NCBI GenBank assembly: GCA_024137785.1
Contig: JAHRHZ010000095.1
Coordinates: 1,114,013-1,178,012 of the forward strand
From: Ginglymostoma cirratum
Lineage: Eukaryota
Length of the DNA stretch: 64,000 bases
Reading direction: 5' to 3'
The position numbers were made by a program, and so were the translations under genes. Numbering within the stretch: position 1 is the first letter of the stretch; each line of letters begins with the position of its first letter. Positions 4,955 to 56,225 of the stretch are shown here, in pieces. The notes under the pieces were generated by a model. That model did no database searches, was not told the DNA's origin, and saw only the letters and a list, made by a program, of their open reading frames with translations.

Positions 4955-6222
4955 TTGAAAAGGCAAGAACTGATTACGGTAGTCAACATGGCTTTGTGCA
5001 TAGGAAATCATGCCTGACGAACTTGACTGAAATTTTTAAAGAAGTGACAAAGAAGATTGATGAAGGCAGTGTGGTGAACATTGTCTATATGGACTTCATC
5101 AAGGTGTTCAATAAGGTTCTGCATGGTAGACTGGTTAGCAAGGTTATATCACATTGAATACAGGGAGAGCTAACTATTTAGATACAGAATTGGCTTGAAG
5201 GTAGGAGACAGAGGGTGGTGGTAGAGAGTTGTATTTTGAACTGCAGGCCTATGATCAGCAGTGCGCCACAATGGTTGGTGCTGTGTTCACTGCTTTTTTT
5301 CATTTATATAAATAATTTGGATATGAATATAGAAGGAATTGTCAGTTGGTTTGCAGATGACACCAGAATTTATAGTGTATTAGTCAGTGAGGAAGGCTAT
5401 CTCAGAGTACAACGGGACCTTGATCAGATGGGCTGATGGGCTGAGAAGTGGCAGATGGAGTATAATTTAGATAAATGTGAGTTGTTGCATTTTGGTAAGG
5501 TAAATCAGGGCAGGATGTATACACTTAATGGTAGGGTCCCAGGGAGTGTTGCCAAACAAAGAGACCTTGGGTGCGGGGTCATATTTCCTTAAATGTGGAG
5601 TCACAGTTAGACTGGATAGTGAAGAAGGCGTTTGGTACACTTGCCTTCATTGGTCAGTGCATTAAGTATAGGAGTTGGGATGGCATGTTGCAGCCGTATA
5701 AGACATTGGTTAGGCCACTTTTGGAATACTGAAATCAATTCTAGTCTCCCTGCTATAGCAAAGATGCTGTTAAACTTGAAAGGGTTCAGAAAAGATTTAC
5801 AAGGATGTTGCCAGGATTGACGAGTTTGAGCTATAGGGAGAGGCTGAATAGGGTGGGGGTGACTTTATAGAAACTTATAAAATCATGAGGGGCGTGGATA
5901 GGGTGAACAGTCAAGGTTTTTTTCCCCAGGATATGGGAGTCCAAAACTATAGAGGACATAGGTTTCAGGTGAGAGGGGAAAGATATAAAAGGGACCTAAG
6001 GGGCAACTTTTTCACGCAGAGGGTGGTCCATGCATGGTATGAGTTATCAGAGGTATTGGTGCAGGCTGGTACAATTACAACATTTAAAAGGCATCCGGAT
6101 CGGTATTTGAATAGGAAGGGTTTAGACGGGTATGGGCCAAATGCTGTAAATTAATTTAGGATATCTGGTTGGACGAGTTGGACTGAGGGGTTTGTTTCTG
6201 TGCTATACAATTCTATGGCTCT
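4955..6222 (+). mobile_element. 5'-truncated CR1/HER1-type LINE inserted into an older minus-strand CR1 fragment (4790-4935 and 6221-6310)
   Basis: ORFs SQHGFVHRKSCLTNL..YMDFIKVFNKV, WFADDTRI, RGNFFTQRVV; ends in a ttctatg-like tail. Confidence 0.92.
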
Positions 6223-8319
6223 AAATGGCCTGCCCCTTATTGTAAGACTGTATCTTCTGATTCTAGGCCCTTGACCAGTGGAAACATTTTTCCTGCTTCT
6301 ATTTTATGGAAGTGACTGGTGATATTGAACATGACACTCTATCTGAAGCAAGCCTGCTCCTTGTAACAGTCTGACTTTGGAAAACTGGCATGGGATTAAA
6401 ATGACCTATGGGCACAATCTGTGTTAATTTTATCTTTGAAAAAGAAAGTTGGCTTCACTTGATTAAAGTCCAGGCAATAGCAGAATGTGCCTAAGCTTTG
6501 TCCTTAAGTGATAGCTGTTGCATATTGCATTTAGAATAAGGTTGTGTCTCAATATGAACTTGGTGCAATGACAATGCAAGACTAATATTGCAGTGATGGT
6601 TATCAAATACAAGGACTAAGATAGTGACGAAATAAATTTGGGTCTGAGACCTTGATCTGAAACATTGGTTTTCGATCTGGAGCTTGACCAATGACATTGT
6701 AATGTTTGTCATGATATATTGTGGTTCATTTTACTCTACTTGGCAGGTTCAAAGGAGACAGGTTATTCATGATGCCAGGGAAACTCAGCTGGAAATATTT
6801 CCACATTTTAAGCCAAGTGCAGAAAACAAACAGGTTTGAATTAGGTTTCTCAGAGAAACGCCATGTACAAAAAAAGATATAAACTTGTTCCTTGGGGAGA
6901 ACACTGGGATGCAGACATCTGTAAGAGAAACTGATGCTGTGTGCCAGTGAGGATTAATATGTGCCAGCATCAGAAACCATAACTATATCAACACTGGGAA
7001 ATATCCCTCCTTAATATGCATCACTTATTAGCTACTAAACCAGTTAAGGCTGAGTAGGATTTCTCAGACAAGCTCAGGCCATTAATCAACACTAATGACC
7101 TCATTGAGACTCCTGATGCCATTAGCTAATGAAGTTAAAATGATTTTTATGCCGTGACCTCCAACAATAATCTGTTGTTCATTTACACCTCTATAGAATC
7201 AATATACCAAGTTGTGCACCAATGAAATTGTGATGCCAATCCTTTAAAAGAAGTTGTACATTTCCAGCTTAAAGTCAGTGCAATTATTCATAAAGCCAAA
7301 AAATGCAAAAATTCATAGATTTCTATAATTGTTTGTTCATCGTCCATTTTGCAGAACTGCCTTGAATAAGAGCAGTAAGTGCATTTTGATTACAAGCTGT
7401 GGAGGAAGTGCCTGTTACATTGTCAAAGCGCTGAAAAATTGCTGTGTTGTGCCTACGCCTGAAACAAGAGAACTAACATATTTGGGGTCCCTGCTGAAAG
7501 ATTCGTTGGCCCTGAGGAATACCATGTCTCTATGTGATAAGCTTTTTTTAAAAGAGGCTACTGCAGATTGTAACCAACAAAGGAGACTTTTTAAAAATGC
7601 TTAATGATATGTGGAGGAACAGAATCTGACCACTGACATAATGTTTCCATGAGACCAAGAAACAACCAAAAAAACTAATATTGCTGTTTGCACTTTCACC
7701 CAGTCAAAAAGACTTCACACTCAGCTGGTTCAGTTTGTAATTCAACCAATGCTAAATTCTTCTTTTGACTTGCTGCACTGGTCATTTTTGTCACCCTGAA
7801 TAATATCTCAGTTGGTACAATTGATCAGAACATAGTTGCATTCGACTGGGCTTTGGTTCTTTGAAAGAAATGTAAAGCATAAACAAAATTCGGCTAAATG
7901 ATCGTCCTAGTGTGAAGGCAGAATGTTATTACCTCTGACTAGCAATATATACAATAAAAAGGCTTTGCTTTGATTCAAATCAAAACATCAGTGTCATAGA
8001 GTGCAAAATCTCATCCAAGCAGTTAAGCATTGGCATGAATTCACAATTCCCCAGCTTATTGGAATGTTAGCCAGAAAGAACTTTCACTAATGATGCAGAT
8101 ATGTAATAGAAAGAATAAGAAACCTATCTCCAAATCAAACTGTAAAATTAAAAGACATTGTGTTTTAAATTGATTGCCCCTGAAATTGGGGACATGGGTT
8201 ATAATGCACAAATAATCTGTGCCCATGAAATAGAATACAGACTGTGTGTCAACATCATGCTGTTTGCTATTTATAATAATTTTGCGTGTAACCAGTGCTT
8301 CCTGCACTGTCTATTTTTA

Positions 8320-8630
8320 AAATTTGTTCATGGGATTTGGGTCTCACTGGCTAGGTGTTGCATTGATTACCCTGCCCTAAGTGGCTTTGAAACATTTGTT
8401 GTGACCTTTCTTGAGCCACTGCAATCAACTTGGTGTAGGTACATTCACAGTGCTGTTAGGAAGGGAATTCTAGGATTTCAAGCTAACTACAGTGAAGGAA
8501 TGACAATATAGCTCCAGGTCAGGATGATGAGTGTCTTGGGGGAGAACAATTAGGTGGCTTTGTTCCCAAGCATCTGCTGCCCTTGTCCTTCTTGGTGGTA
8601 GTAGCCATGAGTTTGGAAAGTGCTGTCAAA
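8320..8630 (-). mobile_element. 3' fragment of the tRNA-headed LINE family
   Basis: Aligns by eye to 20690-21000 (gggaattc.aggattt, acagtgaaggaa, tttggaa.gtgctgtc). Confidence 0.7.
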
Positions 8631-8655
8631 GGAGAGGAAACAATCTCACAGTGTC

Positions 8656-10850: not shown

Positions 10851-11889
10851 GTCAAAATTAGAATCACGTCATTTATTTATTAAGCTTTTAAACAGTCGAT
10901 TTTACAAGGCTCCCATTGTAGTACAGAGGTTTAATGTTGATTAATTTTTTTCATGTACAAGAGGGAGAATTGAATTATTCTTACTGACCTCTTGTCTGCA
11001 ACAAATGTGGTTTTAATTTTCTTTTCCCATTTAAAATCAGGTGGCAGTGTGTTACCTCAAACCCTGTTTGAGAAATCAAAATAAAAAATGACCTACAGCA
11101 AATTGTTTAGTGTTAAAATAAAGTCAGGCTTGTGTAATCAAAGCCCAGGGGAATGATTCCTGAGACACATTTATATACACAAACACACCAAAGAAGAAAC
11201 AGAAAACAGAAAGGAAAGAATTAATAAGTTACAACCTACTTAAAATGAAAGAAATCAGAATGAATTCATGTGAATTTGAGAACCCAATAAGTCAATGTCC
11301 AATTGAAATCTTCACTGTGAGCAGAATTCTCTTTTGCAGAAGCTTAGACACAGTTGAACTATTGGTGAAGGTGTTATTGTAGTATTCAGGGAAATGGTTC
11401 ACTTGCACATGTTCAATGTTGTAAAGAAAAACAACCTGCGCTATTTTAAGGTATCATTGACTACTTAGAGTTTAATTGCTGGATTATTTCTCTTAACTTT
11501 TCGGCATACTTTGGACGCTTTTTGATACTTATGAGAAGTTTCAGCAATCAAGAAAAGTGATCTGACTGATGATAAAGTTGTTTTTTATTTGGTTACTTAA
11601 AGGCTTATGGACAAATGAGTTGCTTCCAAATATAAGTGGCCTTGTAGGGTTGCTTTTTATATTGAACATAACTGTCATAAAGAGGTCATGCAGTGAAGGA
11701 GGAGTTGCTAGAAGTTGGAAAAGAACGAGATGGACTCTTAGAGAAACACAGGTTTCTATCCACAAATCAAATTTTTAAAGGGATATAGAGATCAGAGCAG
11801 TGGTTTTAGCTAAGATTGGAGCTGTTACATCTTCACGTGTTCCAAATAGACTAACAAACAAAAATCAAATGTGGATAATCAAAGATGAA

Positions 11890-12040
11890 CTTCCTAACTA
11901 ATGGCACTGTGGATGCACCTACAGCAAATGGACTGCAGTGGTTCAAGAAAGTAGTTCATCACCACCTTCTCAAGGCAATGAGAGAATAGATGATCAATGC
12001 TTACTGAGCCAGCAACACCCACATCCCATAAATCAACAAA
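11890..12040 (+). mobile_element. 3' tail fragment of the tRNA-headed LINE/SINE family
   Basis: ggactgcagtggttcaagaa..caccaccttctcaaggcaa..gccagcaacacccacatccca matches the reverse complement of 20690-20800. Confidence 0.7.
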
Positions 12041-12839
12041 AAACTCAAACAAAACTGCAGTTTCAGGATTGTGGCTGGTGCTTCAGGTTGAGAAAGTCAG
12101 CTATCAAAATGGGTTTTGATGTCAGCTTATCAGAAACCATTGTGTTTTATAGCAGATAACTCATGTTATTTGCAACAAGTCAATCAGTAATGGCTTTTGA
12201 TGGTCTTCCCTGTTTAATACTTGCTAAGATAATCATCTCATCCACAAGTGCTTTGCACTGACTTGTGTGGAATGTTCATACAATGCAAATACTGTCACAT
12301 TCCAGGAAGTGTTGAATTCAGGTTTGGCTTGCAAAATGCTGGAAATTTCTGGAACCAATCAATCTGTTAATTATGTGTTCATTGGTAACCATTTTGAAAT
12401 TTGGCAAGAGCCCATTTTAAAAAAAGGAAATTTAAACAAGATAATACAATAATCAATTTAGAATTTTTCTCTTCCAGCTGTCTGGGCATAATAATGTAAA
12501 TATTTGTATGCTTGACTCATGGATTTAAAAATTGGTTCAATTCCATTCTCAAATGTGAGAGCAGTGATTTGCAGTCAACTTGCTCCCAATCTCATTGAGG
12601 CAGACACAATGAAAACGTCATGATGCCTCTTAATCGCTATGGTTATATCCTTCAACAAAATGTGATCCTTACTCCTGGTGAGCCAAATGCTCAACCAGGA
12701 CTCTGCAGCATGCATACTTAGACTATGTCCCAGCCAGCATCCTGAAGCAAACCTTCTGCTCTTAAAGGGCAGTGTTACTGATCGTAAGCAAGCTGCAATT
12801 GAACATTTCTCTAGGAATTGGAACTAAGGAGAATCATTA

Positions 12840-13629: not shown

Positions 13630-15922
13630 CCAAAATATTCAACATGGTGCTCAGTTAAGAGTGGTGTACCGCAAAGATCTGTTCTGGGTTCTCTTCTATT
13701 TCTGATTGTTGTAAATGATTTGGATGAAGGAGTGGAAGGGTGGATTAGCAAGTTCGCAGATGATATGAAGGTAGGTCGCATTGTGGACAGTGCGGAGGGC
13801 TGTTCTAATTCCTGTTACAATTCTTTGAAGAGGTAACAAGTAGTTTAGACCATGGAATCCCAGTGGATGTTATCTATCTAGACTTCCAACAGGACTTTGA
13901 TAAGGTGCCTCACGGGAGGCTGCTGAGTAAGGTGAGGGCCCATGGTGTTCGAGGTGAGTTACTGGCATGGATTGAGGATTGGCTGTCTGACAGAAGGCAG
14001 AGAGTTGGGATAAAAGGCTCTTTTTCGGAATGGCAACCGGTGACAAGTGGTGTCCCGCAGGGTTCAGTGTTGGGGCCGTAGCTGTTCACTTTATATATTA
14101 ATGATCTGGATGAAGGGACTGGGGGCATTCTGGTGAAGTTTGCCGATGATACAAAGTTGGGTGGACAGGCAGATAGTACGGAGGAGGTGGGGAGGCTGCA
14201 GAATGATTTCGACAGTTTAGGAGAGTGGTCCAGGAAATGGCTGATGAAATTCAACGTGAGCAAATGCGAGGTCTTGCACCTTGGAAAAAAGAATACAGGC
14301 ATGGACTATTTTCTGAACGTTGAGAAAATTCATAAAGCCGAAGTACAAAGGGATCTGGGAGTGCTAGTACAGGATTCTCTAAAGGTTAACTTGCAGGTTG
14401 AGTCCGTGATTAAGAAAGCGAATGCAATGTTGTCATTTATCTCAAGAGGATTGGAATATAAAAGCAGCGATGTGCTTCTGAGACTTTATAAAGCTCTAGT
14501 TAGGCCCCATTTAGAATACTGTGTCCAATTTTGGGCCCCACACCTCAGGAAGGACATACTGGCACTGGAGCGTGTCCAGCAGAGATTCACATGGATGATC
14601 CCCGGAATGGTAGGCCTAACATACAATGAACGGCTGAGGATCCTGGGATTGTATTCATTAGAGGTTAGAAGGTTGAGGGGAGATCTAATAGAAACTTACA
14701 AGATAATGCAGGGCTTAGAAAGGGCGGACGCTGGGAAGTTGTTTCCGTTAGGTGGGGATACTAGGACCCGTGGGCACAGCCTTAGAGTTAGAGGGGGTCA
14801 ATTTAGAACGGAAATGAGGAGACATTTCTTCAGCCAGAGAGTGGTGGGCCTGTGGAATTCATTGCCACGGGGGCGCAGTGGAGGCCGGGACGTTGAATGT
14901 CTTCAAGGCAGAGATTGATAAATTCTTGATCTCGCAAGGAATCAAGGGCTAAGGGGAGAGTGCAGGTACGTGGAGTTGAAATGCCCATCAGCCATGATTA
15001 AATGGCAGAGTGGACTCGATGGGCCGAATGGCCTTACTTCCACTCCTATGTCTTATGGTCTTATGGTCTTCTAGGTTACAAAGGAACATTGATAGGATGC
15101 AGAGCTGAGCTGAGAAGTGGCAAATGGAGTTTAACCCTGAAAAGTGTGAGGTGATTCATTTTGGAAGGACAAACTTGAAAGCAGAATACAGGGTTAATGG
15201 AAAGATTCTTGGCAGTGTGGAGGAGCAGAGGGATCTTGGGGTTCATGTTCACAGTTCCTTGAAAACTGCCACCCTGGCGGATAGAGTTGTTAAGAAGGCG
15301 TATGATGTGTTAGCTTTCATTACTAGAGGGATTGAGTTCCAGAGCTGTGAAGTTATGCTCCAGCTATACAAAAGCCTGGTTCAGCCACATCTGGAGTATT
15401 GTGTCCAGTTCTGGTCACCTCATTACAGGAAAGATGTGGAAGCGTTGGAAAAAGTGCAGAGGAGATTTACCAGGATATTGCCTGGAATGGAGGGACGGTC
15501 TTATGAGGAAAGGTTGAGGGAGATAGGGCCTTTCTCTTTAGAACGACGAAGGATGAGAGGTGACTTGATAGAGGTGTACAAAATGATCAGAGGTATAGAT
15601 AGAGTGGACAGCCAGAGACTTTTTCCTAGGGTGGAGGTAGCTATTACAAGGGGACATAGTTTTAAAGTGAGTGGAGGTAGATATAGGGGAGACATCAGAT
15701 ATAGGTTCTTTACTCAGAGAGTGGTCGGGGCGTTGAATGCATTGCCGGAGAGGGTAGTGGAGTCGGCCTCATTAGGGGCATTTAAGCGGCTATTAGATAG
15801 GCATATGGATGATAGTATAAGGTAGGGGTGGAGGTTAGATAGAATTTAGGATTAGGGTAAAAGTTCAGCACAACATAGTGGGCCGAAGGGCCTGTACTGT
15901 GCTGTACTGTTCTATGTTCTAT
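13630..15922 (+). mobile_element. Outer CR1 LINE (13630-13807 and 15069-15922) split by a nested CR1
   Basis: SGVPQRSVLG..KFADDMK..AEGCS continues after the insert as RLQRNIDRMQS*AEKWQMEFNPEKCEV (ORF 15124..15825); (TTCTATG)n tail. Confidence 0.92.
13808..15068 (+). mobile_element. Young inner CR1 LINE, 5'-truncated
   Basis: ORFs 13863..14081 (YLDFQQDFDKVPH..SGVPQGSVLGP) and 14133..14918 (KFADDTK..LVRPHLEYC); (TCTTATGG)n tail; TTCTA repeated at 13803-13807 and 15069-15073. Confidence 0.95.
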
Positions 15923-19506: not shown

Positions 19507-20675
19507 TACTTGTTTTGCCTGTCTACCTGCCTTTGAAGCCTCCTTGAGTTGCCAACATGACTCACAGCAGAACAGCACCAAGGCATGTAAAGAAACTGCT
19601 GCAGATGCATCTCAGACGGTATTCATGGAAGGATGGAGATTGATTAATTATGTGGGGATTAGAAACTGCTGGATTAAATATGACATTTCAGGGGACACAA
19701 GTTTCCAACTGATAGGCAAGGATCATTACCACACATGTCAGGAGACATAGAGCTGACTCAACTGATAATGAAAGGCCATGAGTAGTGTTTCCATTGATCC
19801 ACATCATCTGTGATGGATGGGATGTGAAATTCAGTACCAGGTCACAGGTTAATGATGGCTAGAGAGGGGATTCACAAGGTGTGGTTCACACATTGGGGGA
19901 GGTGGTTAGCTTCACTGATAGGGCATTTGTTCTCAGCAAGATACCCTTCCTGTTGCTGGTTCCTTCATCAGGACTGAGTGCCTTTGAATGGGGAACCATC
20001 CCACATCCCCTTAAATCTGTAAACAGATCCAACAATTTGCTTTTCAGGCTTCATGTATATTTGGAGGTATACAAGTATACTGTGACCTCTTACAAGTCAC
20101 AATCCATGAAATCAGTCAAACTTCAGAGTCACAAAAGAAATTGCAATAGACTACTGAAGAACACATTACAGAACTGAATATGAAAGAAGAATGGGATACT
20201 TCACTGGCTTCTAAATTTGTGGAGCTAAAATCAAAGCTCACTTCTCTGCTAAGACAAGAAAAGAGAAAGTTCAAGAAGAAAGCCTGAACAACCGGCTGAG
20301 GATAAATCTAAACTTAAGAGTACCACCTCTGAAATAATGCAGTATTTATGAGATAACTGCTCAGCTAACAAGGTTGAAATGAAGAGCTGATAGAGAAAGA
20401 AAGAAAGCAGGATATATGACAAGCTGTGTACTAAGCTAATTAAAAGATTGCCATTTTACAGGAAGATTTGGAGCAACCTATATGTAAAACAAATCAGGCT
20501 CAGCAAGAGCAGCTACAGAAACAGGAGCTTGAGCTCAAAGCAATGCTTGAAGCAGAAAGAAGTAAAGCTGGACATTGCAAGGAACTGCAAATCACTTTCC
20601 TTTCAGAAACCATGATGGTCTCATGAAAGAGTTCAAGCAAGACACCATGAAGCCAAACAATTACTGAAGTAGCAA

Positions 20676-23600
20676 TTTTTTTTTCTATTCATTTTGTGAG
20701 ATGTGGGTATCGCTGGCTGGCCAGCATTTCTTTCCCAGCCCAAGTTGCCCTTCAGAAGGTGGTGGTGAGCTACCTTCTTGAACTGCTGCAGTCCTCTCCA
20801 GCTATGGGTTGAACCACAATGCTACTGGGAAGGGAATTCCAGGATTTTGACCCAGCGACAGTGAAGGAACAGTGATATATTTCCAAGTCAGGATGGTGAG
20901 TGGCTTGGAGGGGAACTTGAAGGTGATGGTGTTCCCATATGTCTGATCCCTTGTCCTTCCAGATGGAAGTGGTCATGGGTTTGGAAGGTGCTGTCTGAGG
21001 ATCTTTGGCGAATTTCTGCAGTGCATCTGGCAGATAGTACACAATGCTGCTACTGAGCGTCGGTGGTGGAGGAGGTGCATGCTTGTGGATGTAGTGCTAT
21101 CAAGCGGGCTGCTTTGTCCTGGATGATGTCAAGCTTCTTAAGCGTTGTTGGGGCTGCACTCGTCCAGGCAAGTGGGGAGTATTCCATCACACTCCTGACT
21201 TGTGCCTTATAGAAGGTGGACAGGCTTTGAGGAGTCAGGAGGTGAGTTACTTGCCACAGTATTCCTAGCTTCTGGTTTGCTCTTGTAGCCACTGTGTTCA
21301 TATGGTGAGTCCAGTTGAGTTTCTGGTCAATGATAACATCCAGGATGTCGATTGTGGGGGATTCAGTGATGGTAACACCATTGAATGTCAAGGGGTGGTG
21401 GTTAGATTGTCTCTTATTGGTGATGGTCATAGCCTGGCATTTGGGTGGCGTGAATGTCACTTGCCACTTGTTAGCCCAAGCCTGGATATTGTCCAGATCT
21501 TGTTGCATGTGAACATGGACTGCTTCAGTAACTGAGGAGTCACGTATGGTGCTGAATATTGTGCAATCATTGGCAAATATCCCCACTTCTGACCTTATGA
21601 TAGAGGGAAGTCATTGATGAAGCAGCTGAAGATGTTTAGGCCTAGGACACTACCCTGAAGAACTCCTGTAGAGATGTCCTGGAGCTGCGATGATTGACCT
21701 CCAACAACCACGATCATCTTCCTATGTGTCAGGTATGACTCCAACCACCGGAGAGTTTGCCCCCTGATACCCATTGATTCCAATTTTGCTAGGGCTCCTT
21801 GATGCCACACTTGCTTGATATCAAGGGCTGTCTATCTCACCTCACCTCTGGAATTCAGCTCTTTTGTCCATGTTTGAACCAAGGCTGTAATAAGGTCAGG
21901 AGCTGAGTGGCCCTGGTGGAAGCCAAACTGGGCATCACTGACAGGTGCTGCTTGACAACACTGTTGGTGACACCTTCCATCACTTTACTCATGATGGAGA
22001 GGAGACTGATGAGATGGTAATTGGCTGGGTTGGATTTGTCCTGCTTTTTGTGTACAGGATATACTTGGGCAATTTTACACATTGTCGGGTAGATACCAGT
22101 GTTGTAACTGTACTGGAACAGCTTGCCAGGGAAGTGGCAAATTCTGGAGCACAAGTCTTCAGTACCATTGCTGTAATGTTGTCAGGGCCATAGCCTTTGC
22201 AGTATCCCGTGTCTCTAACCATTTCTTCATATCACATGGAGTGAATCGAATTGGCTGAAGACTGGTATCTATAATGTTGGGGACCACTGGAGGAGGCCAA
22301 GATGAATCATCCACTCGACACTTCTGGCTGAAGTTTGCTGAAAATACTTCAGCCCTATATTTTGCACTGATGTGCTGGGCTCTTCCATCATTGAGGATGG
22401 GGATATTTGTGGACCTTCCTCCTCCAGTGAGTTGTTTAATTGTCCAATACCATTCACAACTGGATGTGGCAGGACTGCAGAACTTACATCTGATCTGTTG
22501 GTTGTGGGATCGTTTAGCTCTGTCTATCACTTGCTGCTTTCGCTGTTTGGCGTGCAAGTAGTTCTGTTTGATGGCTTCTCCAGGTTGATACCTCATCTTC
22601 AGGTATGCCTGGTGCAGCTCCTGGTATGCCCTCCTGCACTCTCCATTGAACCAGGGTTGATCCCCTGGCTTGCTGGTAACGGTTGAGTGGGGATATGCTG
22701 GGCCATTCGGTTGTAGATTGTGCTGGAATGCAGTTCTGCTGCTGTTGATGGCCCATAGCGCCTCATGGATGCCCAGTCTTGTGTTGCTAGATCTGTGCGA
22801 AACCTGTCCCATTTAGCACGGTGATAGTGCCACATGACACAATGGAGGTTGTTCTCAATGTGAAGGTGGGACTTTGTCTCCACAAGGACTGTACGATGGC
22901 CACTCTTACCGATACTGTCATGGACAGATGCAACTGCAGCTGGCAGATTAGTAAGGATGAGGTCAAGTATGTATTTCCCTCTTGTTGGTTCCCTCACCGC
23001 CTGCCATAGACCCAGTCTAGCAGCTATGTCCTGTAGGACCCGGCCAGCTCAATCAGTAGTACTGGTGCTGAGCCACTTTTGGTGATGGACATTGAAATCC
23101 CCCATCCAGAGTACATTTTGTGCCTTTGCCATCCTCAGTTCTTCCTCTAAGTGTTGTTCAACATTGAGGAGTACTGACTCATCAGCAGAGGGAGGAATAT
23201 ATGTGGTAATCAGCAGGAGGTTTCCTTGCACATGTTTAACCTGAAGCCATGAGAATTCATGGGGTCTGGAGTCAATTTTGAGTACTCCTGGAGCAACACC
23301 TTCCCAACTGTACACCACTGTGCCGGCACCACTGCTGGGTCTGTCCTGCCAATGGCACAGGACATATCCAGGGATGATGATGGCGGTGTCTGGGACATTG
23401 TAAGATATGACTCTGTGAGGTATGACTGTGTCAGGCTGTTGTTTGACTAGTCTGTGAGTCAACTCTCCCAATTTTGGCACTAACCCCCAAATGTTAGTGA
23501 GGAGGACTTTGAAGGGTCAACAGGACTATTTCTACCGTTGTCTTTTCCGGTGCCTAGGTCGATGCTAGGTGATCCATCTGGTTTCATTTCTTTGAGACTG

Positions 23601-23947
23601 TCGAGTTTGGTACAACTGAATGGCTTTCTAAGCCATTTCGGAGGGGAGTTGAGAGTCAGCCACATTGCTGTTGGTCTGGAATCACATGTAGGCCCGACCA
23701 AGTGAGAGTGGTAGATTTCCTTCCCTGAAGCACATTAGTGAACCAGATGGGTTTTTCTGACAATCGGCAATGATTTCATGGTGATCAGTAGATACTTAAT
23801 TCCAGATTTTTTAGAAATCTCTTTTCTAATTATTGAATTCAAATTCCACCATCTGCCATGATGGGATTCGAACCTGGGTCCCCAGAACATTAGCTGGGGT
23901 TCTGGATTAATAGTCTAGCGGTAATCCCAATAGGCCATCGAGTACCC
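20676..23947 (-). mobile_element. Full-length CR1/L2-group LINE: tRNA-like 5' head, single APE-EN + RT ORF (disrupted), no ORF1
   Basis: EN: LLTNIWGLVPKLGEL..WMGDFNVHH..ILDLILTN..SGHRTV; RT: GPDNI, PANYHLISLLS, GVLQGSVLG, IFANDCT, QQDLDNIQAWANKW; A-rich tail; probable TSD CTGAAGTA at 20664-20671 and 23948-23955. Confidence 0.92.
23863..23937 (-). promoter_or_regulatory. Pol III type-2 internal promoter (A box and B box) at the LINE 5' end
   Basis: Minus strand A box TGGCCTATTGG (23937-23927) and B box GGTTCGAATCCC (23874-23863). Confidence 0.75.
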
Positions 23948-24599
23948 CTGAAGTACATAAGGATTTGACTTTCAATCATGCAAAAAGAAATAAAACTGAA
24001 AAGGCTGAAAAGTTATTAGAGTAAGTTATAAAGATGAAAATATAGTGGACCAAAAGAACACAAGAGCTTTGGTAGAATTGGAATAACCCTAAGCATAAAA
24101 GCAATAGCTTTAAAAAGAGCTGGAAGTTATTAAGAAACAAAACAGTAAAAGTCAAGCAGATTTGAACCATTCAACACAGCATAATTAACAAGATCGGTCA
24201 GGGGCTAATCAAAAGAAAAACCTGGCCGTAATGCATCAGGATAAGCAAATTCTAGGACAGTAAGTGCAGTCCACAAACACTTGATAACACAAACAGGAAT
24301 GATGTACAAAATCACAGGTGACTGCAGAAGTCAAAGTCACCAATGTGAGATCTGGATGTATCAGCAAATTATAAAGACTCATAGGCTCACCTGTTGTTGT
24401 AAATAGTTAACTTCCTTTGGAAAAGTGGTAATTGTTTTAGCTGTACTTTCCCTTTAAGAGAATTCACCTTTAAGGGCTCCGTGTGTGATGTGTATACAAT
24501 GTTGCAATTCTGCCTGGCTGTTAACCTGTTGTGGGCCTGCAAGCTACTGATACAAAAATCATGTGTTTTACTGATTTAAATAAACTAAGGTATCCTGTT

Positions 24600-24930
24600 C
24601 CATAGAATCCCTACAGTGGGGAAACAGGCCATTTGGCCCACTTTGACTCTCTGAAGAGCATCCTATAAGACTCAACCCCCTATCCTATCCCTGTAACGCT
24701 GCATATTCCATGGCTAACTCACCTAACCTATACACTATGGGACAATTTAGCATGGCCAATACACCTAACCTGCACATCTGTGGATTAAAGGAGGAAACTG
24801 GAGCACCTGGAGAAAACCCACAGAAATATGGGGAAACTCCACACAGACAGTTGCCTGAGGGTAGAATTAAACCCAGGTGCCTGGTGCTGTGAGGTAATAG
24901 TACTAACCATTGAGCCACCATGCCACCCCA
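24600..24930 (-). mobile_element. HE1-type tRNA-derived SINE
   Basis: Minus-strand head GGCATGGTGGCTCAATGGTTAGTACT..CCTGGGTTTAATTC; CR1-like tail ending GGGATTCTATG. Confidence 0.88.
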
Positions 24931-25527: not shown

Positions 25528-28500
25528 TCTTTTTATTGCAAAAATATACTTTACCCACAAAACTTTTATATATATACACAGGTACTAAAGCAGTTCTGTA
25601 GAGTCTTTGCATAGACTTTCTATAGACTGATTGCTAGACTGTTAATCAAGAGACCACAGCAGTGTTTTGGGGATCTGGGTTTGAATCCTCCCATGGCAGA
25701 TGGTAGAATTGTAATTCAATAAAAATCTGGAATTAAGAGTCCAGTGATAACTGTGAAACTATTGCTGATTGTCAGAAAAACCCATCTAGTTTACTAATGT
25801 CCCTCAGGGAAAAAAACTAACATCCTTATCTAGTCTGGCCTACATGTGACTCCAAACCCATGGCAATGTAGTTGAACTTAACTGTCCTTTGGTTAATTAG
25901 GAATGGATAATAAATAGTGGCCTGGCCAGTGATGCCCAGATTCTGTGAATGAGTTAATTAAAAATAGCTGTTCCAAGGGCAGTGTGTGGTGTTGGAGAAA
26001 GTCCAGGAGTACATGAAGGATCTCACAGGCAGTGCCCCTCTCACAACCGGCCAATTAATGTCTTGGTGATTGTTGGAAAGTCTGGTGATGAGTCATTCTG
26101 CCAAATGACTTTGACAGTCTGGTCAGGGAACCAGCTGACAGGATCAACCCTCTCCTTTTCCTGCAGGGGCTCGAAGACACAATGTGCTGACCACTACCTG
26201 ATGGACTTGTGGTCATAGTATTTTTCTTTACAAATTTTTCCACAACTACTTGGCACATTCCACAGCAATGAGGCCAAACTCATCCTTCATAATACTGTGA
26301 CCAGGTAGAACCTCAGTACAAAGTGATACTTGGTGTTTGTGTACTGAAGGTCTATGCACAACCTGATGCAGCTACAAATGAAGGTGGCCGTTAGGGTGAG
26401 GGTGGCATTGGGTACATCTTTTCCCCGCTTATCCAGATGTTGTACATGGTGTCCCTGCAGACATGGTTCATCTTTGACCTTCCACCACGTACAACAATAC
26501 CACGTACAACAATACCAAGAGTACCTCTCACCTGATGCCAAGGTTTCTACCTGCAATGGAGAGGGAACGATGCTTCCTTCAGCTCAGTTTCTGCCTCACT
26601 TTGCTGATACAGGCTTCCTAAGTTTTTGAACACACCCTGTCCTGTCTGAACCATATACCCAGCACCTTCAGGTAATCCGACCTGATGGTGAAGGGGATAA
26701 GGGATCAGTTGGCCCAGTTCCCAAAGAACTAGCCTCGCTCTTGCCTCAATTTACCTTGACTCTAAGGCCAATTTGAACTGGTCGCAGTCTGCGCACAGAC
26801 AGTGAATCTGAGTCTATGACCTGCAGGCTGCCGCTGCCTGAAATAACCACTCTCTCAGGCTCATATCCTTCCTGATGGATTCAGCGAAAGGCTCAATACA
26901 ACATATGAACAAGTTGACAGAGATTGTGGGCCGTTCTGTCTGACTCCAGATCTGATCGGGAAGCTTTCTGATTCCCACCAATTGATTGAGACTGCACTAA
27001 TGATGTTACTGTACAGCAGACGGATCCCTCCCGAAAGCCCATTTTGGAGAACACATCCTTCATGTAGGTGTGCAATATCCCGTCAAAGGCCTCCTCCTGG
27101 TCCAGGCTGATGAGGCAGGTGTCCATTCCACTGTCCTGCGTGTTGGTGTTTGTATCCCTGAGGATCACAAGGCTTCCGAGATCATCCTGCTCAATTTAGT
27201 AAATGTTTGATCAGGGTGAATCACTGATCCCAGAGTGGACCTGACCTGATTGATGATGACCTTACATAGGTTATAATAATCCACATTCAGAAGTGAGACT
27301 GGTCGCCAATTTCTGATTTCCACCCCCTCCCTCTTCCACTTTCAGATGAGGGTGATGATGCCTTTCCTCATAGATTTGCAAACAGTACTGACCAGAAGCA
27401 CACTGTCATACATCTCCAGCAGGTCTTGGCCAATCAAATCCCACAGAGATGAATACGTTTCATCTGGTAACCTGTCACTTCTGGGAGTTTTACTCTCCTC
27501 AAAAAACTCGAGAGACTTGGTTAGCTCATCCAGCGTCAACTGCTGGTGCAGTCTGTCCTGCATTCTGTCATCTAAAATTTCCATGATAGAGGACAGGAAT
27601 GACTGGGAGGCCAAGCTGTTTGTGGGCTTTGTGTCATACAGTCTGACATAAAAGGATTTGCTGATCTTCAGGATTTCAGACTGAGATGATGCCACCTTCT
27701 TCCTTCAGGTTACTGATCACAGAACACTAGCTGTGCAGCTTGTGGAAGAAAAAATGTGAGCACAACTCATCCTGCTTCATGGAGCAGAACTTGGATGGGA
27801 AGATAAGTAAGCCTGTGAGGCAAAGAATGGGGCTTTCTGGCTTTTCACCTCCTAGATTTCCTGCTTGATATTGACACACATCATCTGCAGCAGAAGTAGG
27901 TTTTGCATGCTTTTCTGGAGTTTGGACTGTTTTCCCTATCTCTCTATCACCTTCTGAACAGCTCTGAGGATGAAGAACCTCTTGATGTTTCCCATAACTG
28001 TTTCCCACCAGTCCACTGGAGACTCAAAGAGGGGTTTCACTGTTCTCCAACCGTTGTAATTCCTTTCAAACTCCTCACTGTGATTTGAGGTCAACAGTTT
28101 ATCATTCAGTTTCCACCATCCCGTGCTAGCCTACAGTTGTCCTGTAGGTGACTGTTGGCCAGCAGGAGGCAAGGGTCAGAGAACAACACTGCTTGACGTT
28201 GATGGACCTGACTGAGAACGCTCAAGATGTGAACAGGAAAACTATCTTTGAGCGGATAGACCTGTCTGGCCGTGACCATTTTGCTGTGCTCTGCCTGCAG
28301 GAGTGCTGAAGATGTTGTGCAGCTTAGCGACTTAAGCCATTCCATAAGAAATCTGGACGTGGTGTCCATCAATGATGCAGTTGAAGTGTCCAGCCAGAAT
28401 AACCAGCCTGGTTGTTTGCTAGAAGTAGTGGGAGCTACTGAAGAATAGTCCACCACTCACTCTTTACTGCCAGGGTGCACACGTTAATTAATCTCAGGGT

Positions 28501-29290
28501 GCATTTCTATACATACATGTTTGCTACAAGGAGACACCTGCCCAGCACCTCCTTAACCTCGAGATGGTGAAGTTGGCTCCTTGCAGCAGAATATCCAGGC
28601 CAGAGAATGGCCAATTGTTACTCACCTGAAAAAAATTGAAGGCCCATGGCAGCACAGGCTCGACCATTTCCTGAACAACTTCTGCAGAAACAGGAGGCTT
28701 GCTTGATGTTGACCAGGTAAACCAAATTGGAAACATATTGCAAAGTGGCTTTAATGTTATGCACATTAATGCTGGCAATTTTCAAAATCATTTTTTTAAG
28801 ATTTTTAGATTACTGACTTGTCCAATATCAGTTCTCCCACAGTTAAGCAAGCTCCTGCATCCCTGTGGTATGGGCAAACTGTTGCATCCTCACACAGATG
28901 AGGTAGCTGTCCTGTTTCTCCCTGATGGCATTGTTGTGATCCTGGAACCTGCAGCAATCCAGGAGGATCCTCTTCAAGAAGAATGCCCAATCAATTGGTA
29001 TACCTTCTTCACAGTCACCCTGATGGTGTTCTGGACACCCTGGCCTGGATTGTGGTTGCTTGCTAACGCCATCACTCTGGTTGGCTGTACTGTGAATTGG
29101 CAGTAGGCTGAAGGCAGCATAAGTATCCATCAATAGCAGCTTAGTTCAACCGACGATCCTCCAGTGTTCAATCCCGAGCCAGCGATGATCTAGAAATCCT
29201 CTGAAGAGTCGCAACTCGGAGCTTACAGTTGATCTTTGCCAAAAGCTGAGAAATGACGTGATGCAGTGGTAACACACCAGCCTGTCCAGC
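25528..29290 (-). mobile_element. Tx1-clade (L1 group) LINE, degenerate, ORF1 and ORF2 remnants
   Basis: ORF2 pieces SFYVRLY..LTLDELTKSL..KTPRSDRLP..LWDLIGQDLLEMY..MRKGIITLI and CLISLDQEEAFD..SKMGF; ORF1-like FFLKRILLDCCRFQ at 28843..29133; AATAAA/A-rich end near 25530. Confidence 0.82.
25630..25963 (+). mobile_element. tRNA-derived SINE made of the 5' and 3' ends of the 20676-23947 LINE, inserted in the Tx1 element
   Basis: 25630-25890 matches the reverse complement of about 23920-23640; 25891-25955 matches the reverse complement of about 20750-20686; B box GGTTTGAATCC. Confidence 0.85.
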
Positions 29291-30249
29291 TTTCTGGTTG
29301 AACTGAATCAAGAGTCAATCATATGACTTCTGGAAGATATCTTTGAATTTGCTATGCCCGTTTTTAATAAATAATTTCTGGTACAATATTTAATATTATA
29401 CAAACATTTAAGAGGTGCAGGCTTTTTAAATAGAATAAAGTAGCTTTAATTTAAGTTAGGTTTGCATAGCCCTCCAATGACACATGCAACCATTCAGCAG
29501 CATTTCTTGATACTGAACTCATGCTGTGTCATCCAAATTAGCAGATAGCATAAAGTTTGCTGGCTATCTGCAGCAGAAGAAGTGGACAAAAGTTAATTGT
29601 GCATTACAAGCCTCAGGTGATTTTGGGCCTGAAATGGCAGCAGGAATGCAAATGCTGACCACAAGCCTCCGCTAAGTGTGAGAGACAATTTGGTTTAGGG
29701 GCCTGACTCTGAGCTGGTTGGCCGTAGCCAGTGTACTCTGTACAAATAAATAAAGGGTGACTTGGTGGTGGGATATCGGCCTCTGTGTAGTTATTTCACA
29801 GCAATAGCAAATCTTTCCATGTCCGCCTTGAATAACAAGGAAAGTTTATGGACTGTCAATCTTTTCATGATTGCATATAAATTTGTATACAATTTACAAC
29901 ATAGAAACAGATCATATAGTCCAACTGATCCTTGGTTATTTACACCTAAGTCAACAATAAAGGAGATTTTAACAGACATGGAAGACATTCATGTTTTTGT
30001 TAACACAGTTAGGTCTCCTGGAGCTGTACAAAAGCATTCCCTACTAATCAGGGAAAAAGATCAACAAGTACAGTTGCAAAATGCCACACGGTCCCTGAAA
30101 CTGAAAAGAGTGCATTCACTTTGAGCGAATTGTTACATAAAGTAATGATTATGAAAGGTTAATGTTGGAGACTGCATTAATCCCCACCCAGTCTGATATC
30201 TTAAGGACTTGTTTGGGGAAAAGGCAAAACATCTTAGGATCTTTCAATA

Positions 30250-30345
30250 GTTGCTCACCACCACCTTCTCAAAGGCAACTAAGATCAGGCAATAAATGCT
30301 GGCCAGCCAGTGATGCCCACATCCCATGAACAAACGAAAATAAAG
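30250..30345 (+). mobile_element. 3' tail fragment of the tRNA-headed LINE/SINE family
   Basis: gctcaccaccaccttctcaaaggcaact..ggcaataaatgctggccagccagtgatgcccacatccca. Confidence 0.75.
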
Positions 30346-32999: not shown

Positions 33000-33256
33000 T
33001 TAGAATCCCTGCAGTGCAGAAACAGGCCTTTGGACACATCAAGCCTGCACCCGCCGCCCCAAAGAGCATCCACCCAGATCCCAGCTCCCTACCTTATCCC
33101 CGTAATCTTGCATTTACCATGGCTAATCCACCTAGCCTGTACATCCTTACATACTACAGGCAATTTAGCATGGCTAATGCACCTCACCTGCACATTTAGG
33201 ACTGTGAGAGGAAACCAGAGCACCAGGTGGAAATCCAAAGTGCAAACTGCACACAG
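33000..33256 (-). mobile_element. HE1-type SINE, partial
   Basis: tagaatccctgcagtgcagaaacaggcc..ggcaatttagcatggctaat..ggaaaccagagcacc, as in the copies at 24600 and 56228. Confidence 0.82.
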
Positions 33257-33938
33257 ATGGGTTCACATACATAATTCTTTAAAGTTTATGTCACATATAG
33301 ACAGGGTGGTTAAAAAGGCATTTAGCATGCTTGTCTTCATTGCTCAGTCCTTTGAGTATAGGAGTTGGGAAGTCATGGTGAGATTGTCCAGGACATAGGT
33401 GAGGTCTCTTCTGGAGTACTATGTCCAGTTCTGGGCTCCAATTGTAGGAAGGATATTATGAAGCTAGAGAGGGTTCAGAAGAGACTTACCAGGATCTTGC
33501 TGGTTATGGAGGGTTTGAATTAGAAAGATAGGCTGGGACATTTTTCACTGGAGCATAGGAGGTTGAGAGGTGACCTTATAGAATCATGAGGGGTATACAC
33601 AGGGTTAATGGTAGGTGTCTTTTCCCCAGGAGGTGGATTTCATCACTAGGGGTCATATTTTTAAGGTGAGAGGAGAGAGATTTAAAAAAGACATGAGGGT
33701 AACATATTTTACACAGAGAGTGGTTCGCCTGTGGAATGAACTTCCTGAGGAAATGATGGGTGCAAGCATAGTTATAACATTTAAAAGACAATTAGATAAG
33801 TACATGACTAGGAAAGGTTTAGAGGGATATGAGCCAGGAGCAGGCAGCTGGGACAAGTTTAGTTTGGAATTATGTTCGGCATGGACCTGTTGGACTATAG
33901 GGTCTGTGTCCGCACTCTATGATTCCATGATTCTATGA
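33257..33938 (+). mobile_element. CR1 LINE 3' fragment
   Basis: TRGHIFKVRGERFKKDMR..FTQRVVRLWNELPEE; (ATTCTATG)n tail. Confidence 0.9.
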
Positions 33939-33984
33939 CAGTTACCCAAGACTGGAATATTCAAAACTTCAGAAATTTGGGAGA

Positions 33985-34460
33985 AGGGTGCAGAGGAGAT
34001 TTACCAGGATGCTGCCTGGACTGGAGGGCAGGTCTTATGAGGAAAGGTTGATGGAGCTAGGGCTTTTTTCATTGGAGCAAAGAAGGATGAGAGGTGGCTT
34101 GATAGAGGTGTACAAGATGATGAGAGGCATGGATAGAGTGGATACCCAGAGACTTTTTACCAGGGTGAAAAATACTATTATGAGGGGGCATAATTTTAAG
34201 GTGATTGGAGGAAGGTATAGGGAAGATGTCAGAGGTAGATTCTTCACACAGAGAGTGGTGGGCGTGTGGGATGCGCTGCCGGCAGTGGTAGTGGGGTCAG
34301 ATACTTTAGAGACTTTTAAGTGACTCTTGGAAGGCACATGGAAGATAGTAAAATGTAGGGTATGCAGGCTAGATTGATCTTAGTAGGATAACAGGTTGGC
34401 ACAACATTGTGGGCCGAAGGGCCTGGACTGTGCTGTACTGTTCTGTGTTCTATGTTCTAT
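33985..34460 (+). mobile_element. CR1 LINE 3' fragment
   Basis: ORF 33988..34323 QRRFTRMLPGLEGRSYEERL..RGRFFTQRVV; (TTCTATG)n tail. Confidence 0.92.
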
Positions 34461-35169: not shown

Positions 35170-35640
35170 TTGACCTGCAAAATCTCCCCACCTCTGACAT
35201 CATCCCAAGACCAGCCCATCTCGCCTCCACCTCCTTGACCTGTCCGTCTTTTCTCCCACCTATCCGCTCCTCCACCTCACTGACCAACCCCCACCCCAAC
35301 TTCCAACCTACAACCCTCATCCCTGCCTCCTTGAATTGTCCGTCTTCCCTCCCACCTTCCCACCCCTTCCTCCTCGCTGACCAACTCCCATCCCAACTCG
35401 CTACCTACACTCACCTGTACTGGCTTTATCCCTGCCTCCTTGACCTGTCCGTCTTCTCTCTGCCTATCTGCTCCTCTATCCACCTTCTATCATTGCCTTC
35501 CCCTCTCTCTATTTATTTCAGAGCCCCGTACCCCTCCTCCATTTCTGAAGGAGGGTCCAGACCCGAAATGTCAGCTTTCCTGCTCCTCTGATTCTGCCTA
35601 GCTTGCTGTATTCGTCCAGCTGCACACCTTGTTATCTTAT
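35170..35640 (+). mobile_element. Penelope 3' fragment with C-rich internal repeats and decayed hammerhead
   Basis: ccttgacctgtccgtct unit recurs about every 100 bp; CTGAAGGAGGGTCCAGACCCGAAATGTC at 35545-35572; homologous to 39165-39500 and 47270-47735. Confidence 0.85.
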
Positions 35641-38795: not shown

Positions 38796-39164
38796 GGTTT
38801 TATCTGCTCACCTACTTAACTAAGTCTTTGTGCAACATTCTGTTGCCACAATAATATTTAAAGTGCCACACAACTTGATATCAACTGAGACATATGGCTC
38901 TCCAATCCTTTACCTGATCCACTTATCAATGATGAAATACTGTAGCTGAATACAAATCCCTGGTCAACACCATTAACCATGCACAGGCCATTTGAGGACA
39001 CATCCATTATGTTTAGTCTGTGTACCTTGCTGAGATTTTATGGCCAAGAACAGTTTGTTGTTATCAATGATCTAATCAATCATGGTCGACTGTTACTAAT
39101 GTAATGTTTATTTTGTTATTAATCAAAATTTGAGGTGGGATATAACACACTCATCATTCTGCAG

Positions 39165-40645
39165 ATATAACACAGTGTGGAGCTGGAGGAGAACAGCAGG
39201 CCAGGCAGCATCAGAGGAGCAGGAAAGTTGACGTTTCAGGTCTGGACCCTTCTTCAGAAATGGGGGAGGGGGAAGGGAGCTCTGAAGTAAATAGATTGAG
39301 GAGGGGTGGAGCTGGGGGAGGTAAGTGGGATGGTGATAGGTTAGTACAGGTAGGGGATGGTGAGGATTGGTCAGTGAGGCGGGAGGAGTGGATAGGTGGG
39401 AAAGAAGATGGACAGGTTGTGTCAGGTCAAGGAGGCAGGGATGAGAGAGAGGGTTGGTCATGGGATGAGGCCAGGAATGGGGAGATTTTGAAATTGGTAA
39501 AGTCCACATTGAGACCATTGTATTGTAGGCTCCCAAGGCAGAAAATGAGGTGCTGCTCCTCCAGTTTCCAGGTGGCGTCATTGTGACACTGCAGGAGGCC
39601 TAGGATGGACATGTCGCCCAGGGAGTGGGAGGGGGAGTTGACGTGGTTCATGACTGGAAGGTGTGGTTGTTTGTCGCGAACTGAGTGCAGGTGCTCTACA
39701 AAGCAGTCTCCCAGCCTCCGCTTGGTCTCATTGATGTAGAGGAGGCCACATCGGGAGCAGTGGATGCAATAGACCACATTGGCAGATGTGCAGGTGAACT
39801 TCTGATGTGAAGGATTTTTTTGGCTCCTTGGATGGAGGTGAGGGGGAGGTGTAGGGGCAGGTGTAGCACTTCCTGCAGTTTCAGGGAAAGGTGCCAGGGG
39901 TGGTGGGGCTAGTGGGGAGTGTGGAGCGGACAAGGGACTCATGAAGAGAGTGGTCCCTAGAGAAGGTAGATGGGGTGGGGTGGTATATCTTTGGTAGTGG
40001 GGTCAGATTGCAGGTGGTGAAAGTGATGGAGAATGATACGTTGAAGACGGAGGTAGTAGGGTGATATGTGAGAACAAGGGGGATTTCATATTTGTTTTTG
40101 TTGCGGGGAGGTGATGTGAGGGCAGAGGTGCGGGAAATGCAAGAGATGCGGTCGAGAGCATTTTCAACTATCGAAGGGGGGATGTTCTGGTCCTTGAAAT
40201 AAGAGGACATCTGGGATTTTCAGGAGTGGAACAGCCCATCTTGGGAGCAGACGTGGTGGAGGCTGAGGAATCAGGAGTAGGGGATCGCATTCTTGCAGGA
40301 GGGTGGGTGAGTCGAGGTGTAGTGTAGGTAGCTGTGGGAGTCAGTGGGCTTGAAACAGATATCAGTTTTGAGGCGATCACCAGAGATGGAGAGAGAGAGG
40401 TCCAGGAAGGATAGAGAGGTATCAGAGACGGTCCAAGTGAACTTGATGTTGGGGTGATAGGTGTTAGTTAAGTTGATGAACTGTTCAAGCTCCTTGTGGG
40501 AGCACGAGGCAGCGCTGATATAGTCATCGATATATTGGAGGAAGAGGTGGGGGATAGTTCCAGTGTAGCTGCGGAAGAGGGACTATTCCACATCTCCTAC
40601 GAAGAGGCAGACGTAGCTTGGGCCTATGTGGGTTCCAACGGCTCC
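39165..40645 (-). mobile_element. Penelope-like element: RT C-terminal part, GIY-YIG endonuclease (disrupted) and terminal repeat
   Basis: FTCTSANVVYCIHCSRCGLLYINETKRRLGDCFVEH..NH..SH..LEEQHLIFCLGSL..GLN (GIY-YIG with C/H cluster); upstream KPTDSHSYL..HPPSCKNAIPYS typical of PLE RT thumb. Confidence 0.93.
39226..39260 (-). ncRNA. Minimal hammerhead motif in the PLE terminal repeat
   Basis: Minus strand TTT-CTGAAGA-A-GGGT(CCAG)ACCT-GAAA-CGTC-AAC; palindromic ACGT in place of stem III. Confidence 0.7.
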
Positions 40646-41204
40646 TACAAACAGGTAGGCAAACTGCAGCATGTAGTGAACACTGGTATAGATCACATAA
40701 GATCGGTAGCATTTGTGAACACCACTTTCTTGCTTCTTTTCTGCGTCCCTGACATTGCCAATAATTTTTCAAACTACCCAAGATTGTTAACATGGTCCCA
40801 CTCTTACGTGTTTTTCACCACCTTTTGCTGGAAAGGCTTCCATCTAAAAACATACCTTTTACTCTTTTTCTAAGGATGGCCCTGGGTGATATGTTGATTG
40901 AATTTAATTGGCTTGCTGAAGCACTACTGACTATAAAAGATTCCAATGTGCTTCAATGTGCGTTATTTAAAATATGATATATAAGCCTACCCTTATGCTA
41001 TATCCCATTTTCCATGAGCTTTTTTAGCCTTTTAAAGTACTAAATCTTTAATCAACCAGATCTTTACATCAGTTTTGCGTAGCTTATTCAATGTTGTTCA
41101 CCATGATTATTTCAACATTTCCCTCAAAGCATGTCTTTTATGGCTTTCAATGTAATTGCCAGGGGATTAACTGTTCACATTTGCCTGTTATCAGATGTTT
41201 GTGT

Positions 41205-47269: not shown

Positions 47270-47732
47270 GGAATAGGAGGAACTGCCGATGCTGGAGTCT
47301 GAGATAACAAGGTATGGAGCTGTTTGAACACAGCAGGCCTGGCAGCATCAGAGGAGCAGGAAAGCTAATGTTTCGGATCTGGACCCTTCTTCAGAAATTG
47401 GGGAGGGGAAGGGGGCTCTGAAATAAATAGAGAGAGGGGGAGGCAATGATAGAAGGTGGATAGTGGAGCAGATAGGTGGAGAGAAGACGGACAGGTCAAG
47501 GAGCCGGGGATGAAGCCGGTACAGGTGAGTGTAGGTAGAGAGTCGGGATAGGGGTTGATCAGTAGGGAAGGAGGGGCGGGTAGGTGGGAGGGAAGATGGA
47601 CAGGTCAAGGAGGCAGGGATGAGGCTAGTAGAGGTGAGGTGAGTGTCAGTAGGAAGTGGGAGTGGGGATTGGTCAATGAGGTGGGAGGATCAGATAGGTG
47701 GGAGAAAAGACAGACAGGTCAAGGAGGTGGGA
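47270..47732 (-). mobile_element. Penelope 3' fragment with hammerhead motif
   Basis: Minus strand CTGAAGAAGGGTCCAGATCCGAAACATT (47394-47367); inverted near-copy of 35170-35640. Confidence 0.88.
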
Positions 47733-56220: not shown

Positions 56221-56225
56221 ATTGA

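Follow-up and report, generated by a model that had tools for sequence, protein, structure and literature searches.

A candidate SINE-like derivative of an elasmobranch Zenon LINE with a tRNA-like head in Ginglymostoma cirratum

Introduction

In the usual model of SINE origin, a small-RNA head is fused by template switching to the tail of a LINE or to a headless deletion derivative of a LINE (PMC5786205). A stretch of 64,000 nucleotides of Ginglymostoma cirratum DNA (assembly GCA_024137785.1, contig JAHRHZ010000095.1, positions 1,114,013 to 1,178,012 of the forward strand; hereafter the window) raises the question of whether a SINE can also be made in a single step, by deletion within a LINE that already carries a head. 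The window contains a LINE whose start is a tRNA-like stretch and, in its neighbourhood, a short element in which both ends of such a LINE are joined. Evidence on other copies was obtained from contigs of four public sequencing runs and from published consensus sequences. The comparison with consensus sequences in the supplement of PMC13343379 covers the first 400 nt of each row and includes 10 Zenon rows.

Results

Organization of the short element

The short element is composed of the following segments, listed together with the LINE interval that it lacks:

25630..25964, + strand: decayed SINE-like element of about 335 bp made of two Zenon ends, clipped at its 5' end
25630..25700, + strand: remnant of the tRNA-like head, aligned to 23919-23850; no A plus B box pair by box scan
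25701..25888, + strand: body, equivalent to the Zenon 5' untranslated region, also found in the compared part of published consensus 5' ends
25889..25964, + strand: Zenon 3' end, comprising the final two or three codons, the stop codon, the 3' UTR and an A tail of short length
20748..23641, - strand: LINE interval of about 2.9 kb that the short element lacks, made up of the linker and nearly all of the coding region

An earlier note on this DNA, made from the sequence alone, had described the first 260 bp or so as matching the head and 5' UTR of the LINE, and this is borne out by alignment. Positions 25633-25888 (+) correspond to 23919-23642 (-) with a BLAST identity of 73.5% in 279 columns (E 4e-46); without gap columns, 205 of 255 bases are identical, the rest being 35 transitions and 15 transversions. 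All four motifs quoted in that note are present in both copies. The similarity it reported between the last 65 bp or so and the LINE 3' tail was likewise recovered, between 25895-25969 and 20747-20671, with a local score of 45 that was reached by none of 2000 dinucleotide shuffles (maximum 30). The tail is identical to that of the neighbouring LINE at 40 of 59 positions, and to five other Zenon tails in the window at 37-41 of 58-60. Since it is equally similar to all six copies, the match is at the level of the family and not special to the neighbour. When 1966 tiles of the window were scanned, the eight top scorers outside the short element all proved to be 3' ends of the Zenon LINE family.

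The junction between the two parts, placed near 25890 in the earlier note, scores best at 25888-25891 in the window copy, and the retained 3' part starts two or three codons before the position of the stop codon in other Zenon copies. At the start of the head about 20 nt are missing, the A box included, while the B box is recognizable at 25678-25688 with one mismatch. The short element does not have the 20-nt insertion that is located at about 23812-23831 (-) in the 5' UTR of the LINE. At this site there is an A run in the whale-shark consensus, within the part compared, and many contigs skip it or stop there.

No target-site duplication of the short element was found, the best-scoring candidate being matched by 14260 of 20000 random pairs. 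At the break points, direct repeats or microhomology seemed plausible on inspection by eye; they were rejected as chance-level, as a likeness of 17/23 was reached by 415 of 3096 windows and by 3473 of 19290 random pairs. Folding of the head, the tail and the break region was no better than that of shuffled sequences (z -0.68 to 0.39). A further candidate head at 63591-63638 was dismissed as a weak match (E 0.089). A search for exact motifs had 0 matches in metagenome, genome and viral contigs, plasmids showed none by blastn, and scans of related loci yielded no confirmed relative.

Of the SINE characters in the SINEBase definition as given in PMC3531059, a length below 700 bp, non-autonomy (the coding region is absent) and a 3' end in common with a partner LINE were found in the short element. 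The definition also includes an internal Pol III promoter, transcription by Pol III and dispersal as a multi-copy family of common structure. As to the promoter, the window copy has only the B box with its mismatch, and an A plus B pair is present in the homologous LINE head and in the consensus rows; as to dispersal, the window holds one copy, and an excess of heads in contig depth is a hint of more. To judge from these alignments, it is a real feature and a SINE-like two-ended derivative of an elasmobranch Zenon.

The neighbouring LINE and its head

The LINE and its substructures are arranged as follows:

20676..23947, - strand: full-length decayed Zenon LINE, 3272 bp
23854..23947, - strand: tRNA-like head, with A box at 23937-23927 (one mismatch) and B box at 23874-23864 (exact)
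23642..23853, - strand: 5' UTR common to the short element, by alignment
20745..23516, - strand: single APE-RT reading frame, broken, by Pfam and tblastn
23948..23955, - strand: 5' copy of the target-site duplication (8 bp, exact), immediately preceding the start base of the published consensus
20664..20671, - strand: 3' copy of the target-site duplication, behind the A tail at a distance of 4 nt

In Pfam searches with pieces of the broken frame, Exo_endo_phos_2 was found above and RVT_1 below the cut-off, and tblastn showed the frame to be colinear with a 962-aa APE-RT relative. ORF1 is absent: 431 nt extend from the element start (23947) to the first endonuclease residue (23516), 306 of them up to the break point. 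The LINE ends with A9 at 20684-20676, and other copies in the window also have A-rich ends. These two features, absence of ORF1 and a poly-A tail, are described as marks of Zenon, the poly-A tail being unique to it among CR1-group elements (PMC13343379). Over the first 115 bases the LINE is identical to RhiTyp_Zenon-1 at 105 (counted by eye), and both have the same start base. Its translated pieces match proteins of Cetorhinus, Heptranchias, Heterodontus and Rhincodon at about 56-75% identity. In a tree of C-terminal sequences, which contains no named Zenon protein, the LINE is separated from the CR1 copies of the window and groups with unnamed and amphioxus proteins. On these sequence characters, the LINE is assigned to the elasmobranch Zenon elements of the CR1 group; shark and ray Zenons are, according to PMC13343379, not formally annotated so far.

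The tRNA-like head, followed by UTR, forms the start of all seven consensus rows of elasmobranch Zenon (white shark, stingray, whale shark, catshark and three of dogfish), whereas the coelacanth row and two hagfish Zenon rows show no head by eye in their first 400 nt. The 8-bp duplication lies outside the head, so head and coding region were inserted as one unit. An 8-bp match arose in 304 of 50000 pairs drawn at random from the window; when the flanks were compared more loosely, by local alignment over a wider stretch, the result was not significant (3354 of 20000). The head in all compared elasmobranch rows, together with the duplication that surrounds head plus LINE, indicates that the head has been on the LINE since before the split of sharks and rays. 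A one-off SINE insertion in front of this particular copy was considered and ruled out on the same two grounds. By the evidence of consensus rows and flanks, the tRNA-like head is thus a true part of the Zenon LINE. The earlier note had regarded the short element as independent support for this; the statement about the head holds, while its proof comes from the seven rows and the 8-bp duplication and not from the short element.

Contigs of all four runs, including that of a distant organism, cover bins of the head, linker and coding region, and their repeated part stops near 23935-23990.

Descent of the short copy

To place the short copy relative to its neighbour, we used diagnostic sites, defined as single bases at which the compared part of the whale-shark row is unlike the state of white shark and catshark. 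They were read by eye in a single copy about 20% diverged from the neighbour. Six of 21 candidate sites were dropped (two with neither state, two not diagnostic among the comparators, two with indels or of low confidence), leaving 15. All 15 are in the whale-shark state in the neighbouring LINE. In the short copy nine are, and six are in the older state, the two kinds being interleaved. Decay alone would give six older states with p 0.0003-0.012 at reversion rates of 7-14%. In addition, the consensus of loose ends at 23716 in three runs (698, 960 and 201 contigs) has two of the older states.

The older states indicate that the short copy does not descend from its neighbour, and that its parent belonged to an older subfamily on the way to the whale-shark-type Zenon. 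The nine derived states held in common with whale-shark-type Zenon in turn exclude an ancient SINE lineage that evolved apart from Zenon. As far as these sites tell, the branch of the short element lies within the Zenon lineage, later than the split from lamniform and carcharhiniform Zenons and earlier than the subfamily of the neighbour. The proposal of the earlier note that head, body and tail all derive from one element has therefore to be amended: the two ends do belong to one LINE family, and the neighbour is not the parent. Diagnostic sites leave unfixed the direction of exchange, that is, deletion in the LINE or transfer of the head from a SINE.

Origin of the short element

We favour, with a probability of about 0.68, the interpretation that a non-autonomous family, of which the short element is a decayed member, was born when an elasmobranch Zenon LINE underwent internal deletion. 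An ancestral elasmobranch Zenon would have captured a tRNA or SINE head, and a later subfamily would have lost the 2.9-kb coding middle, leaving head, 5' UTR and 3' tail. The deletion product could then be transcribed from the internal type-2 Pol III promoter boxes and copied in trans by the Zenon ORF2 through the common tail, and would represent a ready-made SINE. Because the LINE already starts with a tRNA-like promoter, simple deletion may suffice to make one.

The reverse order of events, to which we give about a third of that weight, starts from a tRNA SINE with a Zenon tail, which provided Zenon with its head and body and was followed by repeated exchange of 5' ends by template switching. 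If so, what appears as the 5' UTR of the LINE would be SINE sequence, and the short family would not be a deletion product, both with the same low likelihood. Zenons without a head are indeed present elsewhere, in the compared part of coelacanth and hagfish rows and among Lepidoptera, where 5' ends of Persaeus and Zenon are reported without a Pol III promoter (PMC6740152), which means that acquisition of the head took place at some time, with a SINE as plausible donor. Exchange of modules between SINEs and LINEs is described as common (PMC5499810, PMC5786205), and contig depth hints that the head-bearing short sequence is commoner than the 5' coding region. This order is opposed by the nine derived states, which by eye are common to the short copy and whale-shark-type Zenon and absent in the compared Zenons of white shark and catshark. 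It would need at least one exchange inside this lineage, whereas a single deletion, by a mechanism documented for Zenon (PMC6740152), explains the same pattern. Moreover, tail-like sequence occurs only at chance level between the head and the coding region of the LINE.

It is also conceivable, and in our estimate improbable, that a full-length Zenon was inserted at this site and its middle was later lost by ordinary genomic deletion, with no mobile short family involved. The only copy of the head-to-tail junction seen is the one in the window, and no target-site duplication was found with it. No other junction, nor any bridge over 23641, was present among the 15 joints listed (of about 30000) and the 32 pieces listed (433456 others). 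Loss of the first 20 nt and, apparently, of neighbouring host sequence is also in line with a one-off event. Against it, what the break takes out is almost exactly the coding region, both cis-acting ends being retained. Summed contig depth in head bins exceeds that in four endonuclease bins in all four runs (5.7, 6.9, 49 and 2.0 times), and that in the next four bins in three of them (0.5 times in the remaining run), although contig depth does not measure copy number and gives no ranking of the parts of a gene. Such an excess of heads, a pattern impossible from 5' truncation, is a hint in favour of a short family.

Promoter boxes and T runs

In the LINE head, an A box with one mismatch and an exact B box are 63 nt apart; this is the sole such pair in the window, where 0.03 are expected. 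Neither ARAGORN at default settings nor Rfam even at relaxed thresholds calls a tRNA in the heads of the LINE or the short element. Relaxed ARAGORN folds the LINE head into a cloverleaf with a long variable arm, at a threshold that yields 42 hits window-wide. As one of so many hits, this cloverleaf does not serve to name the parent tRNA, which we guess to have been of the Ser/Leu type with a long variable arm.

The sense strand of the LINE is poor in T runs. In 3261 nt it contains one T4 run vs 16 A4 runs, and none of 218 other tiles of the window has so few T4 runs, every one having 8 or more. The TTT triplet is observed 10 times vs 35.3 expected (0.28), as low as in none of 1000 shuffles, and the same ratio in five control retroelements ranges from 0.80 to 1.48. 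With the protein held fixed (783 codons), 8 TTT remain vs 17.3 expected (8 of 3000 permutations). At synonymous sites where T would create TTT, 7 T and 33 C were counted vs 174 and 197 elsewhere (p 0.0003; CR1 control p 0.88). Under codon permutation T4 alone is not significantly rare (252 of 3000), and AAA is mildly rare too (90 of 3000). Avoidance of TTT fits selection against Pol III terminators, as far as base composition can indicate, and leaves Pol III transcription unproven.

Independently of the question of origin, the LINE may be transcribed by Pol II, a possibility to which we assign somewhat less than even odds. In that case the tRNA-like head would be a passenger or would serve the short family only, and TTT avoidance would have other causes, such as U-rich decay elements, splice acceptors or codon use, for which the odds are the same. 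Reviews state that LINEs are transcribed by Pol II and that Pol III limits the length of elements (PMC10886601, PMC3531059), an uncapped 3.3-kb RNA would need unusual translation, and the T4 deficit alone does not withstand codon permutation. Pol II transcription is opposed by the strand-specific avoidance of TTT at synonymous sites, which is not seen in CR1 controls of the window, and by the retention of A and B boxes right at the 5' end of shark and ray Zenon consensus rows, as compared here.

Between 23640 and 23516 (-) none of the AUG codons keeps the endonuclease frame consistently. In the LINE copy the one at 23587 is out of frame, as is, by eye, the matching one in the stingray consensus row. 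Upstream of the endonuclease the same frame is open as an Arg-rich stretch. Just past the break point lies a mini frame of AUG, one codon and stop, which some of the compared consensus rows have in the coding frame and others do not. This pattern of start codons suggests that initiation may be unconventional, as an uncapped RNA would need.

We tentatively extend these observations to a wider proposal, to which we give rather less than an even chance: that shark and ray Zenon is an autonomous coding retrotransposon, transcribed end to end by Pol III from a tRNA-derived promoter and kept free of T-run terminators, and that it repeatedly produced true SINE families in a single step, through loss of its coding middle, with lineage-specific break points.

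Host element and surrounding repeats

The short element is inserted antisense into a decayed ORF2, and several other repeats were recorded in the window, which is repeat-rich DNA:

25966..29000, - strand: host of the short element, decayed L1/Tx1-like ORF2, by translation
923-1288, 8314-8633, 11887-12043 and 30243-30344: other truncated copies of Zenon, with 65-76% identity to the full-length one
24600-24930, 33000-33240 and 56220-56550: three copies of another tRNA-headed SINE family
39150-40900, 35200-35640, 47270-47730 and 49700-50650: Penelope-like repeats, without hit in Pfam
14082-15922, 5000-6140, 33270-34460 and 52919-53496: CR1 copies

We take the host to be L1/Tx1-like from its motifs, and Pfam gave no hit for two short pieces of its ORF2. 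At 25560-25970 the host frame stops at the first Cys of an apparent C-terminal zinc-binding motif, and past the short element it resumes as 3' UTR-like sequence. Host sequence may have been lost along with the first 20 nt of the short element. The three-copy SINE family presumably resembles HE1/V-SINE, and the name Penelope-like is our assumption from a C-terminal motif.

Old Zenon pieces are clustered at 53683-54802, where a 3' fragment, an RT fragment and an inverted fragment (54586-54802) are found. There is also a tail-only piece at 54110-54180, whose start roughly coincides with that of the short element's tail. Translated Zenon is also included in two basking shark gene models, 3'-5' exoribonuclease 1 isoform X3 and MyoD family inhibitor domain protein isoform X2.

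Discussion

A LINE with a head of its own would offer a one-step route to SINEs and a natural experiment extending over shark and ray orders. The rule that LINEs are transcribed by Pol II and SINEs by Pol III is put in question by the headed Zenon, which also makes it testable. A 3.3-kb coding RNA produced by Pol III would need to avoid terminators, for which the TTT depletion seen here is relevant, and would need cap-independent translation. A practical effect is that, owing to the common 260 bp, SINE and Zenon annotations will mask each other in shark genomes.

Comparison with known elements

The LINE of the window is alike in 5' sequence, absence of ORF1 and poly-A tail to the elasmobranch Zenon LINEs of PMC13343379 (RhiTyp_Zenon-1 and others), and its length of 3272 nt compares with 3244-3314 nt in the five rows of that source with the suffix '-1'. 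In the main text of PMC13343379 the word tRNA occurs 0 times and SINE once, and in the passages covered here neither the head nor a short derivative is commented on.

A close parallel to the short element is Persaeus, a short internally deleted element (SIDE) derived from lepidopteran Zenon (PMC6740152), which is similar in its length of 260-390 bp, in having both Zenon ends and in its poly-A end. Persaeus arose several times in Lepidoptera from lineage-specific Zenons (PMC6740152). It is described there as having no tRNA homology or Pol III promoter, whereas the parent LINE of the short element itself supplies a head with A and B boxes, and as having 5-bp direct repeats at the break, where the short element shows no significant microhomology. 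Among SIDE characters, homology of both ends to one Zenon is therefore present in the short element; absence of tRNA homology and promoter, and direct repeats at the break points, are not. The short element works like Persaeus and is not classified as Persaeus because its 5' segment is tRNA-type sequence with A and B boxes.

A tRNA head, part of a LINE 5' UTR and a LINE 3' end are likewise combined in the bipartite SINEs of RTE and Vingi LINEs, Bov-tA, AfroSINE, SINE2_Gav and CoeSINE4 (PMC5786205). In those, according to the same source, the head was added later to a headless deletion derivative, while here it is already on an autonomous CR1-group LINE. One LINE group with tRNA-like sequence, RTE-1_DAn and relatives, is mentioned in passing in PMC5786205. 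SacSINE1 and the CmiSINEs of cartilaginous fishes are, like the short element, tRNA-headed or SINE-like in sharks; they are set apart by their descriptions, which give a Deu (SacSINE1) or CORE (CmiSINEs) body and an L2-2_CM tail (PMC5499810), in contrast to the short element, which consists wholly of Zenon ends. ZenoSINE of butterflies has a similar Zenon tail and is distinguished by a head described as of unknown origin (PMC6685494). SINEs with Zenon tails are reported from butterflies and bivalves (PMC6685494, PMC11481361); related literature includes PMC7245038 and bioRxiv 10.1101/443036.

In the literature covered here, and in a motif search of the supplement of PMC5786205, neither the short family nor the tRNA head of shark Zenon is described; Repbase, Dfam and the SINEBase table were outside this scope, and an entry there is possible. 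Two-ended LINE derivatives, those of Zenon included, have already been described (PMC5786205, PMC6740152). Offspring of Zenon by internal deletion is thus known, and the unusual part of the present case is a parent LINE with its own tRNA-type promoter.
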